DNA from: an uncultured beta proteobacterium
GTDB taxonomy: Bacteria > Pseudomonadota > Gammaproteobacteria > Burkholderiales > SG8-39
Direction: 5' to 3'
DNA length: 64,000 nt
NCBI GenBank assembly: GCA_963827595.1
Contig: CAWHBT010000016.1
Coordinates: forward strand, 172,803 to 236,802
Within the stretch, counting starts at the first letter, position 1, and each line of letters begins with the position of its first letter. Shown here in pieces: positions 33,198 to 63,226 of this stretch. The translations under genes and the position numbers were made by a program. Under the pieces are notes generated by a model that did not search any database, was not told the DNA's origin, and saw only the letters and a program-made list of their open reading frames with translations.

Positions 33198-33213
33198 TGC
33201 AATTGGTATGCCA
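33198..33213 (-). promoter_or_regulatory. putative sigma54 -24/-12 promoter
   Basis: Minus strand 5'-TGGCATACCAATTGCA-3' (GG-N10-GC). The -12 GC lies ~140 nt upstream of ATG 33059. Confidence 0.5.
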
Positions 33214-33302
33214 ACGTCCGTCACCGTGATCTCACCCAAGTAGATCTGATCCACGCGGCGTTTCCTGTCGGGCTGCGGCGACGGTCGCCGCTCGAGCTGC
33301 GC

Positions 33303-35621
33303 TCAACTCGAGCGCGGAGCGATGGGTTGTGGAGCGCGGAGGGAAGAGAGCAAGCCGTGCAGGGCCTCGAGGTCTGCGGGCTTGACCAGGTGGTGGTCGA
33401 AGCCGGCGACCCTGGAGCGCCGGCGATCTTCCTCCTGACCCCAGCCGGTCATCGCCACGAGCACGGTGTCCCGGAAGGCCGGCTCCTGGCGCATCTGGCG
33501 GGCGACTTCCTCGCCGTCCATCTCCGGCATGCCCAGGTCAACGAACAGGATCTCGGGCCGGTGATCGCGCGCGGCCTGCAACGCCGCCGCGCCATCGTAG
33601 ACGACGCGGGCCTCCGCGCCCAGCAGCTCCAGCAGGATGCCGAGACTGTCCGCGGCGTCGCGATTGTCGTCGACCACGAGGGCCCGGCACGCCGCGGCGC
33701 GCGCGCGCCGCGGAACGCTGTCGCGCGCCGCCTCGGGTGCAGTCGACTGGGTGGCGGGAGCGAGCGGCAGGGTCACGACGAACTCGCTGCCGCGACCGAG
33801 CCCTTCGCTCCGCGCCTCGATGCGCCCGCCGTGCTTTTCCACCAGGCTGCGCGCCAGCGTCAGCCCGATGCCCAGCCCCTCTGGCGCGGGGCCGCCCGTG
33901 CGGTCCGCCCGAACGAAGATCTCGAAGACGCGCGGCAGCACCTCGGCCGGAATGCCCGCGCCGGTGTCGCGAACCGAGATCTGCGCCGCGCCTTCGTGGC
34001 GCCGGCCGGAAAGCCAGATCCGTCCGCCACGCTCGGTATAACGTGCCGCGTTGTTGAGCAGATTGGAAACCACCTGGGCGAGCCGCACGAGATCGGCCTC
34101 CAGGACGAGCTGCTCCGACGGCAGGCTCAGCGTCAGCTCGTGGCCGGCGGCCTCGATGAGCGGCAGGCTGGTCTCGATGGCGCTGCGCAGCACCGCCGCC
34201 AGCTCGACGCGCTCCTTGCGCAGCTCGATCTTGCCGCTGCTGATGCGCGACAGCTCGAGCAGGTCATCGACCAGCCGGACCATGTGTGCGACCTGTCGCT
34301 CGAGCATCTCCCGCATCGCGTCGGTCATGCCCGAGCCGGACACGCGCAGGATGTGCAGGACGTTGCGGATCGGAGCGAGCGGGTTGCGCAGCTCGTGCGC
34401 CAGGGTCGCCAGGAACTCGTCCTTGCGGCGATCAGCTTCCTGCAGCTGCTCCTGCAGCACCTTCTGGTCGTGGATGTCGGTTGTGACGCCGAACCAGCAC
34501 GCCACGCCACCCGCGGGGTCGCGCAGCGGCACGGCGCGGGTGACAAACCAGCGGTAGACGCCGTCGTGGCGCCGGTTGCGGACCTCGATCGCGTACGCCC
34601 TTCCCTCGCGCAAGGCCGCGCTCCATTCCGAGACGCAGCGCTCGCGATCGTCGGGATGGAGCACGAGCTCCGGCCACGCGCGGGCGTTCTGCTCGGCCGT
34701 GATCCCGCAATACTCGAGCCAGCGGCCGTTGGCATAGGTGATCGTGCCGTCGGGCGCCGCGGTCCAGACGATCGAGGGAATCGTCTCCGCCAGAAACCGG
34801 AAGCGCTCCTCGCTCTGACGGAGCGCCAGCTCGACGCGCTCGCGCTCGGTGATGTCGACGGCCACCCCCGCGACGAGCGAAGCGCTGCCGTCGGGGTCCG
34901 GGAGCGCGAACTTCCGGACGACCGACTGGTGCAGCACGCCGTCCTCGTGGCGCAGGCGCTCGACGACCTCGACCACCGTTTCGCCCGCGAGCGCGCGCCG
35001 GTCGTTCTCGGCGAACTCGCGCGCCGTTTCGGGCGGGAAGATCTCGGCGTCGGTCCGCCCGTAAAGCGCCGCGCGCGGCGTCCGGAACGCCTTCTCGGCC
35101 GCGTCGTTGACGTAGACGTAGCGGCCCGCGCGATCCTTGATCCACGCGAGCCCGGGGAAATGCTCCATGAACCGGGCGAAGCGCTGCTCGCTCGCGCGGA
35201 GCGCCTCGAGGCGATCCCGCAGCTCGTACTGCCGCCGCCGTGCCCTGAGGGCGGTGCGCATGGCGCTGAGTAGGGTCGCCTCCCTGACCGGGCGCTCGTG
35301 AACGGTGACGTTGCCGAGCAACTCGACTCCGGATGCCACGACCGGCGCGTCGGCGAGCACCAATACCGGAAGGTCGGACCAGGCCGGTTGCCGTCGCAGC
35401 GCCTCGAGCAGACTGGCGGGCGGGGGAGCGACCGGCGCTGCGTCGATCAGCAGCAGCGCACCGGCGCCGGCCTCGAGTTCCCGGCACAGCTCGTCCAGGT
35501 CGCGGCAAACGCGGGCGGCGAGACCGGCTCGCCCGAGGACCGTCTCGCAAAACGCGGCAGCGTCAGCGACCGGGGCGAGCACGAGAATGCGCTCGTCGAC
35601 GGGCGGCCTGTCCATGCTCAT
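33303..35621 (-). CDS. hybrid sensor histidine kinase (degenerate N-terminal receiver, 2 PAS, HisKA, HATPase_c, C-terminal receiver)
   Basis: Start at MSMDRPP. PAS blocks (FPGLAWIKDRAGRYVYVN, IVWTAAPDGTITYANGRW), H-box FLATLAHELRNPL, N/G boxes (NLLNNAARYT, DTGAGI, GLGIGLTL), receiver ALVVDDNRDAAD...LFVDLGMPEMDG...KP. Confidence 0.85.
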   Translation of the reverse strand: MSMDRPPVDERILVLAPVADAAAFCETVLGRAGLAARVCRDLDELCRELEAGAGALLLIDAAPVAPPPASLLEALRRQPAWSDLPVLVLADAPVVASGVELLGNVTVHERPVREATLLSAMRTALRARRRQYELRDRLEALRASEQRFARFMEHFPGLAWIKDRAGRYVYVNDAAEKAFRTPRAALYGRTDAEIFPPETAREFAENDRRALAGETVVEVVERLRHEDGVLHQSVVRKFALPDPDGSASLVAGVAVDITERERVELALRQSEERFRFLAETIPSIVWTAAPDGTITYANGRWLEYCGITAEQNARAWPELVLHPDDRERCVSEWSAALREGRAYAIEVRNRRHDGVYRWFVTRAVPLRDPAGGVACWFGVTTDIHDQKVLQEQLQEADRRKDEFLATLAHELRNPLAPIRNVLHILRVSGSGMTDAMREMLERQVAHMVRLVDDLLELSRISSGKIELRKERVELAAVLRSAIETSLPLIEAAGHELTLSLPSEQLVLEADLVRLAQVVSNLLNNAARYTERGGRIWLSGRRHEGAAQISVRDTGAGIPAEVLPRVFEIFVRADRTGGPAPEGLGIGLTLARSLVEKHGGRIEARSEGLGRGSEFVVTLPLAPATQSTAPEAARDSVPRRARAAACRALVVDDNRDAADSLGILLELLGAEARVVYDGAAALQAARDHRPEILFVDLGMPEMDGEEVARQMRQEPAFRDTVLVAMTGWGQEEDRRRSRVAGFDHHLVKPADLEALHGLLSSLRAPQPIAPRSS

Positions 35622-35848
35622 CGTCCGCTGCACCCTGGTGTCGCGCGTCCTCGATCGGCGCCACTGCCGGTGAGTGCGCCCCGCGGGCTCCGCCACAACG
35701 GACCCACGCCGGATGCTACGCCGGGGGAGTCCCCGGTGCAGGCGAGGCAGCGGCGGCAAGGGCGCGTCGACGGCGGTCCTTCTGTGCAACGGCACTTCGC
35801 AGAACGAGGCGCCGACCGAAGCGGTCCCGCCGCCGCCTTTCAACCCGC

Positions 35849-35864
35849 AGCACATCGCGTGCCC
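35849..35864 (-). promoter_or_regulatory. putative sigma54 promoter (long leader to the kinase gene)
   Basis: Minus strand 5'-GGGCACGCGATGTGCT-3'. Divergent from the promoter at 35966. The -12 GC lies ~229 nt upstream of ATG 35621. Confidence 0.4.
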
Positions 35865-35893
35865 TGCCGCGGGTGTTGGACGCTGCCATGCGT

Positions 35894-35924
35894 GCAACTC
35901 TTGCAATCCCAGCGCAACGTTTAC
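35894..35924. promoter_or_regulatory. paired candidate activator sites (UAS)
   Basis: GCAACTCTTGC (35894) and GCAACGTTTAC-CGCG (35914), centres 20 bp apart and 48 and 68 bp upstream of the GG of the 35966 promoter. Confidence 0.45.
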
Positions 35925-35965
35925 CGCGGCACCGCCTTCAGTGCCACCTGCCCCGCCAACGGCGG

Positions 35966-62410: not shown

Positions 62411-62458
62411 AGGAAGACCCGCCGCCAGGCGGGCCAACACTCTAAGGGAGCAGCAGAA

Positions 62459-62686
62459 ATGACACGACTGACAACGCTCGACCGCATCGCGCTCATCTTG
62501 CTGATCGTCGGTGGCATCAACTGGGGACTCGTCGGCGCCTTCGACGTCAATCTCGTCACCTTGCTCTTCGGCCCGCGTTCGCCACTCAGCCGGTTCATCT
62601 ACATCGCGGTCGGCGCCGCGGCGCTCTATGCGATCTACCGGCTAGCCCGGCCGGCGTCGCGGCGCTCGATGCGATCTACAAGCTAG
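62459..62686 (+). CDS. DUF378 membrane protein
   Basis: SD AAGGGAG. LDRIALILLIVGGINWGLVGAFDVNLV is the family signature. The C-terminus is altered by the 41-bp tandem duplication. Confidence 0.75.
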   Translation: MTRLTTLDRIALILLIVGGINWGLVGAFDVNLVTLLFGPRSPLSRFIYIAVGAAALYAIYRLARPASRRSMRSTS

Positions 62687-62699
62687 TCCGGCCGGCGCC
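62618..62699 (+). repeat. 41-bp tandem direct duplication
   Basis: GCGGCGCTCTATGCGATCTACCGGCTAGCCCGGCCGGCGTC (62618) is followed by GCGGCGCTCGATGCGATCTACAAGCTAGTCCGGCCGGCGCC (62659), with 5 mismatches. The period is not a multiple of 3, and the gene's stop lies in copy 2. Confidence 0.75.
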
Positions 62700-62714
62700 A
62701 CGGTCGGTTCGCGG

Positions 62715-63179
62715 TCAGCTCGACCGGAGCGGCTGCGCCGGAGCCAGCGGACCGGCCAGGCCGGCCACCACGGCGAGCAGGCGATCCGGATCGACCGGCT
62801 TCGCGAGATGCGCTTGATAGCCGGCGCGGAGGACGCGCGCGAGGTCGTCCGCCGTCGTACGCCCCGTCACCGCCGCGGCGGGGAGCTGCTGCGCGGTACC
62901 GCGCGGCATGCTCCGGATCGCCTGGATCAGCGCGTAGCCGTCGCCGCCCTGCATGCCGATGTCCGACAGCAGCACGGTGGGCCACCACCACGCCACGGTC
63001 GCCAGCGCCTCGGCCGTACTCGAGGCGGAGCGTACGTCGGCCGCGGCCGCGGCGAGGAGTGCCACGAGGAACTCGCGCTCGTCGGCCTCGTCTTCGACCA
63101 CAAGCACGCGAACCCCGCGCAGCTCGGTCCGGGGCCAGCGCTGGTCGGTCGGCGGTCGGGTAAGGTGGGTCGTTTTCAT
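62715..63179 (-). CDS. single-domain response regulator (CheY-like receiver)
   Basis: VRVLVVEDEADEREFL...VLLSDIGMQGGDG...HLAKP: acidic pocket, phospho-Asp and conserved Lys are all present. Confidence 0.8.
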   Translation of the reverse strand: MKTTHLTRPPTDQRWPRTELRGVRVLVVEDEADEREFLVALLAAAAADVRSASSTAEALATVAWWWPTVLLSDIGMQGGDGYALIQAIRSMPRGTAQQLPAAAVTGRTTADDLARVLRAGYQAHLAKPVDPDRLLAVVAGLAGPLAPAQPLRSS

Positions 63180-63210
63180 CGCTACGACGCCGAGTTCCTA
63201 ACCGTCTGCT

Positions 63211-63226
63211 AGCACTTGGCGTGCCC
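63211..63226 (-). promoter_or_regulatory. putative sigma54 promoter
   Basis: Minus strand 5'-GGGCACGCCAAGTGCT-3' (GG-N10-GC). The -12 GC is 33 nt before ATG 63179. Confidence 0.45.

Follow-up and report, generated by a model that had tools for sequence, protein, structure and literature searches.

A probable sigma-54-dependent stress island with its own RpoN paralogue in an uncultured betaproteobacterium

Can a general stress programme be placed under sigma-54? The question is raised by a 64-kb stretch of DNA (the window) from an uncultured Burkholderiales-type betaproteobacterium of soil. The region that begins at 33.2 kb and reaches 63.2 kb or beyond is an island of some 20 predicted -24/-12 promoters in front of stress-type genes, together with genes for a sigma-54 factor (RpoN) and for a bacterial enhancer-binding protein (bEBP). 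Sigma-54 holoenzyme binds its promoters and cannot open them unaided. Elsewhere, cargo such as CsbD, BON/OsmY, ElaB/YqjD, DUF1328, Dps/ferritin-like proteins, superoxide dismutase (SOD) or catalase, YciE/F-like proteins (DUF892/DUF2383), and trehalose belongs to the RpoS, SigB, and EcfG regulons of Enterobacteria, Bacillus, and Alphaproteobacteria, respectively, and the island's cargo is of the same type. Those regulons employ sigma-70-family factors governed by proteolysis or partner switching, and their genes are scattered. In contrast, the window's genes are clustered in one island, and its predicted -24/-12 promoters, with an ATP-driven activator, should have essentially no basal activity.

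We propose that the region is probably a sigma-54-dependent stress or dormancy regulon gathered in an island, equipped with an RpoN2-type paralogue and under two-component control. This proposal gains support from the conserved positions of the sites in related metagenome-assembled genomes (MAGs), from a ~36-fold enrichment of the sites in metagenome loci, and from the recurrence of such islands in Burkholderia.

Sigma-54 sites and the genes behind them

That ~20 such promoters precede stress-type genes here was first claimed in a sequence-only reading of the window; the enrichment, intergenic placement, and comparative conservation of the sites bear the claim out. Expected motif counts come from dinucleotide-preserving shuffles of the window (n = 100 for GGCAC-N5-TTGC). 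This exact pattern occurs 10 times, against 0.67 expected, no shuffle of the 100 reaches 10, and all 10 matches fall within 35,967-55,994. The earlier reading was right about the enrichment and put the chance expectation at about one, but it counted nine exact matches, overlooking 51707(+). Looser patterns are likewise in excess: GGYAY-N6-TGC occurs 30 times (7.3 expected) and TGGCACG-N4-TTGCW, with up to two mismatches over its 12 specified positions, 22 times (8.0 expected). Sigma-70-like consensus promoters are not enriched in the window (1, with 0.7 expected). The position weight matrix (PWM) logo of the island sites is GGCA(C/T)G-N4-TTGC, with GG and GC exactly 10 nt apart; apart from a preference for G at -26, this is the general sigma-54 consensus.

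Genes were called with a codon-usage model trained on the long open reading frames (ORFs) of the window, because raw ORF lists are useless at the genome's G+C content of ~71%. Between 33 and 63 kb, the PWM finds 21-23 sites, all but two or three of them intergenic and facing the next gene. About 18 of 23 have a start codon with a Shine-Dalgarno sequence on the same strand 30-150 nt downstream. The left 32 kb contains only two PWM matches, both within genes, in agreement with the original remark that its intergenic regions have none. The contrast is partly explained by the scarcity of intergenic DNA in the left half (1,535 nt, versus 5,350 nt in the right half; 10.8% of the window overall). At equal density, ~6 matches would be expected there (binomial estimate p ~ 0.005). 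Flanks and spacers differ from site to site within the island, and the sites are therefore not a repeat family. We found no integrase, tRNA boundary, or shift in composition at the island within the window, and thus no evidence of recent mobile insertion; G+C content runs through without a break, and Rfam and tRNA scans of the window gave no match.

Conservation of the motif in orthologous intergenic regions, a check that the earlier reading had suggested, is seen in four related MAGs. Specifically, a genome search with the island RpoN protein returned relatives L001-L005, comprising syntenic loci in four MAGs of uncultured betaproteobacteria (78-86% identity) plus a short contig. In the syntenic MAGs, sites stand at constant distances before csbD (62-64 nt) and the AI-2E gene (57-59 nt), and they are also kept before rpoN, ferritin, the 108-aa gene, DUF2383, and BON. 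Orthologous alignments show only the -24 and -12 bases to be invariant, while spacers and flanks drift; the csbD promoter, CGGGCAC..TTGCA, is invariant at its 62-64 nt in five genomes.

Beyond these relatives, the module is common, with 354 relatives of the activator in metagenomes of several habitats. From these we took 80 activator-orthologue loci (65-90% identity; 799 kb in total), in which 108 exact sites occur; the same sequences reversed, which served as the control, contain 3 (~36-fold). An rpoN paralogue is preceded by a sigma-54 site in 19 loci, including those of Ralstonia and Burkholderia. We then classed the first ORF downstream of 214 sites in 90 loci. Families with no member in the window (glycosyltransferase, PRC-barrel, SDR) were assigned by eye or from Burkholderia multivorans annotation, with no hidden Markov model (HMM). 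The counts are:

PAS hybrid kinase: 26 cases, the commonest
rpoN paralogue: 21 cases
DUF883-like: 13 cases
sugar-phosphate-synthase-like glycosyltransferase: 10 cases
CsbD: 9 cases
PRC-barrel: 5 cases
ferritin: 4 cases
YghA-like SDR: 4 cases
DUF1328: 4 cases

Each site named in the sequence-only reading is present in the window within 1-2 nt and on the strand given there. Reading of the flanks revised several gene starts (ferritin, 56030; DUF2383-like, 51423; M48, 61289; DUF883-like, 45033). The sites of the island are:

33198..33213 (-): TGGCATACCAATTGCA, 139 nt before the gene for a 46-aa Cys peptide (32919-33059); the left-most site of the island
35849..35864 (-): GGGCACGCGATGTGCT, before a PAS hybrid histidine kinase gene (33303-35621)
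35966..35981 (+): GGGCACGCGCATTGCG, 52 nt before a secreted repeat protein gene (36033-36407)
36513..36528 (+): GGGCACGAAGTGTGCG, weak, 39 nt before an endonuclease/exonuclease/phosphatase (EEP) gene (36567-37328)
38682..38697 (-): TGGTACGGCAGTTGCA, before genes for an SLT transglycosylase (37888-38568) and an AHSA1/SRPBCC protein (37391-37891)
41980..41995 (+): GGGCATGCGGCTTGCG, before an AsmA-family gene (42010-43953); doubtful
45093..45108 (-): GGGCACGGCGGTTGCG, before DUF883/ElaB-YqjD-like (44731-45033), YqjE-like (44301-44720), and YqjK-like (43958-44314) genes
45232..45247 (-): TGGCACGCGGGGTGCT, absent from the earlier list; a possible short transcript downstream
45598..45613 (-): GGGCATGGAACATGCT, 34 nt before a 77-aa ORF (45331-45564)
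47321..47341 (+): CGGCACGCAACTTGCGTACC, near-palindromic, with a site on both strands, the + copy 31 nt before a 68-aa ORF (47367-47573); also kept in L001
47590..47605 (+): GGGCACGCGAGTTGCC, no ORF downstream; precedes a structured RNA
48490..48505 (+): TGGCACGCCCCATGCT, 59 nt before an AI-2E transporter gene (48564-49772); at 57 nt in L004 and L005
49800..49815 (+): GGGCACGCGCGTTGCA, 64 nt before csbD (49879-50103), a Cys-repeat gene (50113-50646), and DUF1328 (50681-50845)
51459..51474 (-): GGGCACGTCGGATGCT, 36 nt before a DUF2383-like gene (50974-51423); kept in L001 and L004
51487..51502 (+): GGGCACACCGTTTGCC, divergent from the preceding site; a proline-rich ORF is a possible target
51706..51721 (+): TGGCACAGGCCTTGCT, 64 nt before a conserved 57-aa ORF (51785-51958); kept in L001-L003
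52036..52051 (+): GGGCACGGGCCTTGCA, 72 nt before rpoN
55609..55624 (-): CGGCACGCCGCTTGCA, 33 nt before a secreted 108-aa protein gene (55250-55576); kept in L001 and L002
55980..55995 (+): AGGCACGCGGCTTGCA, 35 nt before a ferritin-like gene (56030-56581); kept in L001, L004, and L005
59494..59509 (-): GGGCATGGCGATTGCC, 43 nt before BON (59071-59451), BON (58729-59046), PLD/cls (57327-58649), and sodB (56653-57290); kept in L002 and L005
59652..59667 (+): GGGAACAGGTGTTGCT, weak, with one core mismatch, before a DksA/TraR-like gene (59727-60119) and a second AI-2E gene (60130-61179); the orthologue of the DksA/TraR-like gene in L002 has a stronger site
61224..61239 (+): GGGCATGAAACCTGCG, weak, 50 nt before an M48 peptidase gene (61289-62194)
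63211..63226 (-): GGGCACGCCAAGTGCT, 32 nt before a stand-alone response regulator gene (62715-63179)

The asmA site exists as first described, but its role as a promoter is doubtful, its GC lying only 15 nt from the annotated ATG.

Protein families were tested by HMM searches against Pfam at gathering scores. These confirm CsbD, DUF1328, two BON proteins, PLD/cls (PLDc_2), Ferritin, DUF378, two AI-2E proteins, and M48, as well as DksA/TraR, EEP, SLT, AHSA1, AsmA, and an HtrA-like protease. Signalling genes recognised by Pfam are two PAS hybrid kinases, a stand-alone receiver, and an RsbRD_N-type kinase. Among the stress families originally listed, CsbD, DUF1328, BON, ferritin, and DUF378 are thus upheld. 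Others fared less well: the Fe/Mn SOD scores with Sod_Fe_N only, its C-terminal half lying in another frame and being recognised by eye; DUF883_C (22.5 bits; cutoff 27) and DUF2383 (27.3; cutoff 30.8) fall below their gathering scores; and DUF6496 and YflT find no Pfam match in the island ORFs even at E <= 5. No sigma-70-family sigma factor appears among the island genes scanned with Pfam (33-64 kb). For the small unidentified ORFs, weak Pfam and NCBIfam searches yielded nothing usable.

The RpoN paralogue, the NtrC-type activator, and a candidate enhancer

The regulatory genes and the candidate enhancer elements are:

52123..53565 (+): rpoN paralogue, followed by the gene for a 188-aa glycine-zipper membrane protein (53588-54154)
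45744..47198 (-): bEBP gene; receiver, sigma-54-interaction AAA+ domain (GSFTGA), and Fis-type helix-turn-helix (HTH)
38839..41886 (-): second PAS hybrid histidine kinase gene, a candidate sensor for the bEBP
47246..47277: GTAA-N3-TTAC pair GTAACGTTTAC and GTAATTCTTAC, 21 bp apart, flanked by the bEBP start and the divergent site; candidate operator/enhancer
51990..52000 (+): candidate enhancer GTAAGTTCTTC, in the block GCAnTTTCTAC-N8-GGTAAnTTCTTC, ~45 nt upstream of the rpoN -24 element
59553..59563: element GTAACCCTTGC, ~50 nt upstream of the GG of the BON promoter
35914..35924: element GCAACGTTTAC, between the divergent sites 35864(-) and 35966(+)
36491-36501, 38756-38766, 45305-45315, and 45324-45334: further GTAA-N3-TTAC elements from the motif search

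The sequence-only reading had placed an rpoN and a receiver-AAA+-HTH bEBP with a GSFTGA loop inside the island, and both are there. RpoN has the Pfam domains Sigma54_AID (56 bits), CBD (186 bits), and DBD (196 bits), exceeds the cutoff of NCBIfam model NF009118 (589 bits versus 396), and is intact in region I, the core-binding region, the HTH, and the RpoN box, ARRTVTKYR. The bEBP matches Response_reg (86 bits), Sigma54_activat (229 bits), and HTH_8 (50 bits), and its loop reads GSFTGA, a known variant of GAFTGA. Its gene lies within ~5 kb of rpoN.

Which sigma-54 is this? No lptB, hpf, or ptsN stands beside it; rather, its neighbours are the DUF2383-like gene, the 57-aa ORF, and the genes for the 188-aa membrane protein and the HtrA-like protease. 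Because these housekeeping neighbours are missing, the gene has a sigma-54 site of its own, and an orthologous activator lies nearby, we infer that it encodes an RpoN2-type paralogue. Overall RpoN identity proved useless as a criterion, being ~50% to both paralogues and housekeeping copies, and orthology therefore rests on the activator, on synteny, and on an HTH signature. Specifically, the recognition helix reads RVTNGKYM or RATGNKFM in the window's clade and in the RpoN2 of Ralstonia and Burkholderia, versus RVTTQKYM in housekeeping copies, and the same paralogues have FEFKxFF near the HTH, versus YELKYFF. In L005, the paralogue (10001-11441) is frameshifted in the HTH region, probably through an assembly error.

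Thiobacillus-type loci were rejected as orthologues of the island: their RpoN is ~50% identical, and the ABC ATPase gene directly upstream marks them as housekeeping lptB-rpoN. They serve as negative controls, with 0-1 PWM matches per 21 kb. Most of them (L006-L030) have an exact GGCAC-N5-TTGC at 9973-9986, 14 nt before the start of the RpoN tblastn match. This is too close for a normal promoter; the site may serve autoregulation through sigma-54 binding, or the real start codon may be located further downstream.

NCBIfam assigned the activator to no named equivalog (NtrC, AtoC, ZraR, GlrR, NtrX, LuxO, PspF, RtcR, NorR), the best scores being 388 against a cutoff of 714 for AtoC, 378 against 559 for NtrC, and 330 against 760 for ZraR. 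It is therefore an uncharacterised NtrC-family response regulator. It is 64% identical to a bEBP of the Ralstonia solanacearum megaplasmid and 57-58% to activators of B. cenocepacia and B. multivorans. In long loci, a hybrid kinase lies within 10 kb of its orthologue in 23 of 32 cases.

Where might this activator bind? In a dyad search upstream of the sites, the AT-rich GTAA-N3-TTAC was the sole dyad to stand out; inverted repeats with G+C-rich half-sites, also considered as enhancers, yielded background words only. With at most one mismatch, GTAA-N3-TTAC occurs nine times in the window (0.93 expected), always in intergenic DNA of the island. GTAA/TTAC words gather ~65-110 bp upstream of the start site across the window and the four MAGs; in the island, about half of the promoters have the element. 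Pairs with members 19-21 bp apart are frequent. An alignment of six genomes shows the GTAA-containing block upstream of rpoN to be conserved, and a GTAA ... TTAC pair ~26 nt apart at the BON promoter is conserved in L002 and L005. Among 71 orthologous loci, 45 also have the element 50-120 nt before the activator start, 21 of them as a pair, and ~60 nt beyond it a sigma-54 site is directed away from the activator gene. We regard GTAA-N3-TTAC as the candidate operator or enhancer of this activator because its place before the activator gene is that expected of the activator's own operator; the presence of the same elements before this gene suggests autoregulation.

These parts suggest a circuit. 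Read from the sequence, ~20 short units with stress, transport, envelope, small secreted, and signalling genes would start at -24/-12 promoters. The PAS hybrid kinases would sense a cue, probably starvation, stationary phase, or redox or osmotic stress, and phosphorylate the activator's receiver. Subsequently, the activator would bind GTAA-N3-TTAC, often as pairs ~20 bp apart and ~65-110 bp upstream, and open the promoters with ATP; those lacking the element may rely on a site further away or on a different activator. The RpoN2-type paralogue would first be boosted by a burst that needs the housekeeping sigma-54 and would then serve the island in a feed-forward loop.

Known relatives and competing explanations

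A close characterised counterpart is the module of the Ralstonia solanacearum megaplasmid (rpoN2 with RSp1667/RSp1668), which likewise sets a second-type rpoN beside an NtrC-family activator with a GSFTGA loop. The module is known, and its function has been termed enigmatic (PMC4676750, PMC4371752). There too, a sigma-54 site precedes rpoN (at 75 nt), genes for a PAS hybrid kinase, DUF1328, and ferritin lie nearby, and a tandem GTAA-N3-TTAC pair stands upstream of a sigma-54 site; RpoN promoters had been predicted before rpoN2 and the bEBP gene (PMC4676750). Unlike the island, the Ralstonia locus has two activators rather than one, and its stress-gene cargo is far smaller; it is not known to run a stress regulon. 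Ralstonia rpoN2 is preceded by an RpoN promoter and depends on rpoN1 for expression; minimal medium induces it, whereas it stays silent in rich medium (PMC4371752, PMC4676750).

B. multivorans has a homologous island of this kind, with ~20 sites spread over ~85 kb of a 744-kb plasmid-annotated replicon; the adjoining 50 kb of the record has five matches, all within genes. The sites precede genes for BON, SDR, DUF2795, DUF4142, DUF892, CBS, DJ-1/PfpI, MgtC-VTT-EEP, and rpoN2, and further a glgE-treS-treZ-treY trehalose operon, DUF3175 with a cation/proton antiporter, and DUF3008-DUF1328-DUF3022, an operon followed on its strand by Ku and LigD. BON, DUF1328, EEP, and rpoN targets are shared with the window, and one of the two B. 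multivorans activators is 57% identical to the window's. The B. cenocepacia rpoN locus, on a 1.1-Mb plasmid-annotated replicon, has 5 exact sites in 29 kb (0.27 expected), before BON, YghA-like SDR, CBS, and DUF3175-like genes (all families named by eye from the translations) and before rpoN. Several glycosyltransferase operons also lie behind sigma-54 sites in the Burkholderia islands. In contrast to this cargo of trehalose, non-homologous end joining (NHEJ), and glycosyltransferase genes, the window has csbD, ferritin, SOD, and an ElaB-like operon, and the GTAA element is weak or altered in Burkholderia.

Functional evidence exists for Burkholderia pseudomallei, in which a mutant of rpoN2 (chromosome 2) loses late-stationary katE expression (48-72 h), and an RpoN box precedes katE (PMC4745423). 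This loss and the regulation of Ralstonia rpoN2 both fit the suggested phosphorelay and feed-forward loop. No RpoN2 target other than katE was found for Burkholderia in the open-access literature searched, and papers on the B. cenocepacia lxa locus report no sigma-54 involvement. The plasmid RpoN of Bradyrhizobium DOA9 is said to fine-tune stress responses, in a role left vague (2026; PMC13207237).

Dedication of a sigma-54 paralogue to one activator and gene set has a precedent in Cereibacter (Rhodobacter) sphaeroides, with the pairs RpoN1-NifA, RpoN2-FleQ/FleT, and RpoN3-AprX. AprX, like the window's activator, is a receiver-AAA+-HTH protein with a GAFTGA/GSFTGA-type loop (PMC11999139). Specificity there lies in promoter position -11 and in activator contacts, as cited in one Ralstonia study (PMC4676750). 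The C. sphaeroides proteins are alphaproteobacterial and non-orthologous, and the only known target of RpoN3 is one Xre-family regulator gene. Paralogue specificity is known for C. sphaeroides and is hypothetical for the window's RpoN.

Response-regulator-type or stress-sensing bEBPs that turn on protective genes with sigma-54 are familiar from the Rrp2-RpoN-RpoS cascade of Borrelia burgdorferi and from PspF-psp, RtcR-rtcBA, ZraR-zraP, and NorR-norVW. Those systems act on one operon or through RpoS; the island, unlike them, appears to wire ~20 promoters directly, the sigma-54 gene itself among the targets. In the open-access literature searched, we found no description of a clustered sigma-54 general-stress regulon, of its enhancer motif, or of such a role for RpoN2 in Burkholderiales. 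The original suggestion of novelty thus holds at the scale of the island but not for its parts, since the rpoN2-activator module, katE, and the DOA9 RpoN were on record. Already known, too, are sigma-54 regulons, paralogous sigma-54 factors with cognate activators (PMC11999139), and the Ralstonia rpoN2-activator module (PMC4676750).

Several points weigh against an island-wide stress regulon run by its own sigma factor. The label "general stress" comes from family names, two of which (DUF883, DUF2383) are sub-threshold, and many ORFs have no family; some targets, such as AsmA and SLT and the glycosyltransferases of Burkholderia, are not narrow stress genes and suit the wider theme of the cell exterior put forward for sigma-54 (PMC3162934). 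The asmA site at 41980 is too near its annotated start codon. The GTAA element is missing from about half of the promoters, those of csbD, ferritin, and the 108-aa gene among them, and it is assigned to the activator by co-location only. No housekeeping rpoN is seen within the 64 kb, and the status of the island gene as a second copy is drawn from context and orthology. Finally, the Ralstonia locus has 0 exact and 3 PWM matches in 25 kb, versus ~23 sites in 30 kb in the island.

The strongest competitor, which we nevertheless consider unlikely, holds that the promoters are real and served by the housekeeping sigma-54, with the island RpoN redundant, a competitor or antagonist, or reserved for a few targets. 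Ralstonia lends it weight: an rpoN1 mutant no longer expresses rpoN2, and mutants of rpoN2 itself show no phenotype in the tests done (PMC4371752), while plasmid-borne rpoN2 partly restores the growth defects of an rpoN1 mutant, its authors suggesting an antagonistic role (PMC4676750). Because RpoN2 can partly substitute for RpoN1, promoter recognition by the two overlaps. In B. pseudomallei, however, the single rpoN2 mutant does lose katE expression (PMC4745423). An island motif so close to the general consensus, from which it departs only by a preference for G at -26, would suit the housekeeping factor, yet the paralogues share substitutions in the -12-recognition helix of the kind that confer specificity in C. 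sphaeroides (as cited in PMC4676750; for RpoN3-AprX, PMC11999139). Likewise, rpoN lies within 10 kb of the activator orthologue in only 13 of 32 long loci, but the paralogue with its own sigma-54 site recurs in those 19 loci.

Less likely again, and in our view improbable, is an envelope- or exterior-remodelling sigma-54 regulon (lipids, peptidoglycan, outer membrane, polysaccharides, transport) rather than one of the RpoS/SigB/EcfG type. AsmA, SLT, cardiolipin synthase, BON, M48, the HtrA-like protease, AI-2E, and many small secreted or membrane proteins are envelope related, as are the glycosyltransferase operons of Burkholderia, but genes for cytoplasmic protection stand behind sites too: CsbD, ferritin-like, SOD, DUF2383, and DksA-like in the window; DUF892, DJ-1/PfpI, YghA-like SDR, and trehalose genes in Burkholderia, with Ku-LigD next on the strand of a site-preceded operon; and katE in B. 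pseudomallei (PMC4745423). One comparative study has proposed sigma-54 control of the bacterial exterior in general (PMC3162934). Envelope and stress readings overlap and are not mutually exclusive.

That the GG-N10-GC matches are no promoters at all, and reflect chance in GC-rich DNA, a dispersed repeat, or an unrelated operator, is hardly credible: a ~71% G+C genome and a core of mostly G or C, along with the weak sites (59652, 61224, and 36513) and the one implausibly near its start codon (41980), might invite the idea, but shuffles never reach the observed counts, the reversed control yields 3 matches to 108, only the -24/-12 bases are invariant among orthologues while flanks and spacers are unconserved between sites, the asymmetric motif is consistently oriented to the downstream gene, and sigma-54 and an activator are both encoded in the island.

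We speculate further, and tentatively, that in many Burkholderiales an RpoN2-type paralogue, a GSFTGA activator, and a GTAA enhancer could together act as master switch for a programme of general stress response or dormancy. If so, the switch would govern CsbD, OsmY-like, ElaB-like, ferritin, SOD/catalase, trehalose, and NHEJ genes and C/U-rich RNA leaders. Cargo usual for RpoS, SigB, and EcfG would then sit behind a sigma-54 switch that stays off until the activator spends ATP, a further general-stress architecture that is ATP gated, free of basal expression, and, because rpoN2 is itself a target, self-amplifying. The second sigma-54 of Ralstonia solanacearum and several Burkholderia species would, with its activator, control a large set of survival genes. 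This would explain why rpoN2 mutants of Ralstonia and Burkholderia lack a phenotype under standard laboratory tests and would render an enigmatic role testable. With promoter and enhancer motifs defined, how these plant and human pathogens persist in soil, in water, and in their hosts could be tested as well.

RNA elements and neighbouring genes

The site at 47590(+) had been described as having no gene downstream. No ORF follows it indeed, but a conserved structured RNA does:

47617..47716 (+): structured RNA with the stem GCGTCC/GGGACGC, a long hairpin, and C/U-rich CCCUCCCC stretches

This ~100-nt RNA follows the site in nine loci (the window, L001 at 1902-2030, L046, L047, L050-L053, and L108). 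Five base pairs show compensatory changes among eight sequences, and CCCUCCCC-type anti-Shine-Dalgarno stretches lie in the loop or the 5' flank of the long hairpin. Rfam has no match to 47617-47716. The RNA forms the 5' leader of a DUF421/YetF-like gene in L052, L053, and L108; this gene is absent from the window and L001, where the orphan site is predicted to drive the structured RNA.

A second transcript is suggested at 45232-45247(-). Upstream of this site stands a tandem GTAA-N3-TTAC, and downstream come ~100 nt of C/U-rich hairpins and a T-run terminator (45145-45117) before the DUF883 promoter. The segment 45117-45247(-) could be a short sigma-54-dependent RNA; only its 3' hairpins are conserved, in one other locus (L051). 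In the csbD 5' leader (49830-49870, +), the inverted repeat TGCGTGCGCGC-ATTCC-GCGCGCACG is conserved across five genomes, downstream of the predicted start site and ahead of the Shine-Dalgarno sequence, and may be a regulatory or stabilising hairpin.

Beside the structured RNA, at 47760-48400(-), lies a decayed gene for a ~419-aa cation/proton antiporter, with frame changes and a loss of ~600 nt. L001 has an intact copy (2854-4113), adjoined by a Ku-like N-terminus, and the gene is also listed for L040 (43075-44394). The B. multivorans island has a cation:proton antiporter gene beside LigD and Ku, which we set beside the window's remnant by annotation only. At the end of the BON-BON-cls operon, sodB (56653-57290, -) has a frameshift near ...KAFAARG / AATGHFGSGWAWL; either a pseudogene or a sequencing error would account for it.

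Among the small proteins, the product of the 57-aa ORF 51785-51958(+), MRLLDPRFRYVPAAKTDVLATWRRFGF..., is conserved in L001-L005 (66-92% identity), without a match to any family. The 46-aa secreted peptide (32919-33059, -) is a single C-(D/N)-K-L-(S/T)-G-x4-C unit, and the 177-aa protein of the csbD operon (50113-50646, +) contains three; neither matches a Pfam family. Small proteins like the 46-aa peptide lie downstream of sigma-54 sites in two metagenome loci (e.g., L046). Finally, in the left half of the window, a large efflux-type operon at 24854-30717(+) (397-, 1062-, and 490-aa products) and a gene at 30735-31700(-) both lack a sigma-54 site; the latter, judged by eye, appears to encode a Bug/TctC-type solute-binding protein, which would fit a Burkholderiales origin.

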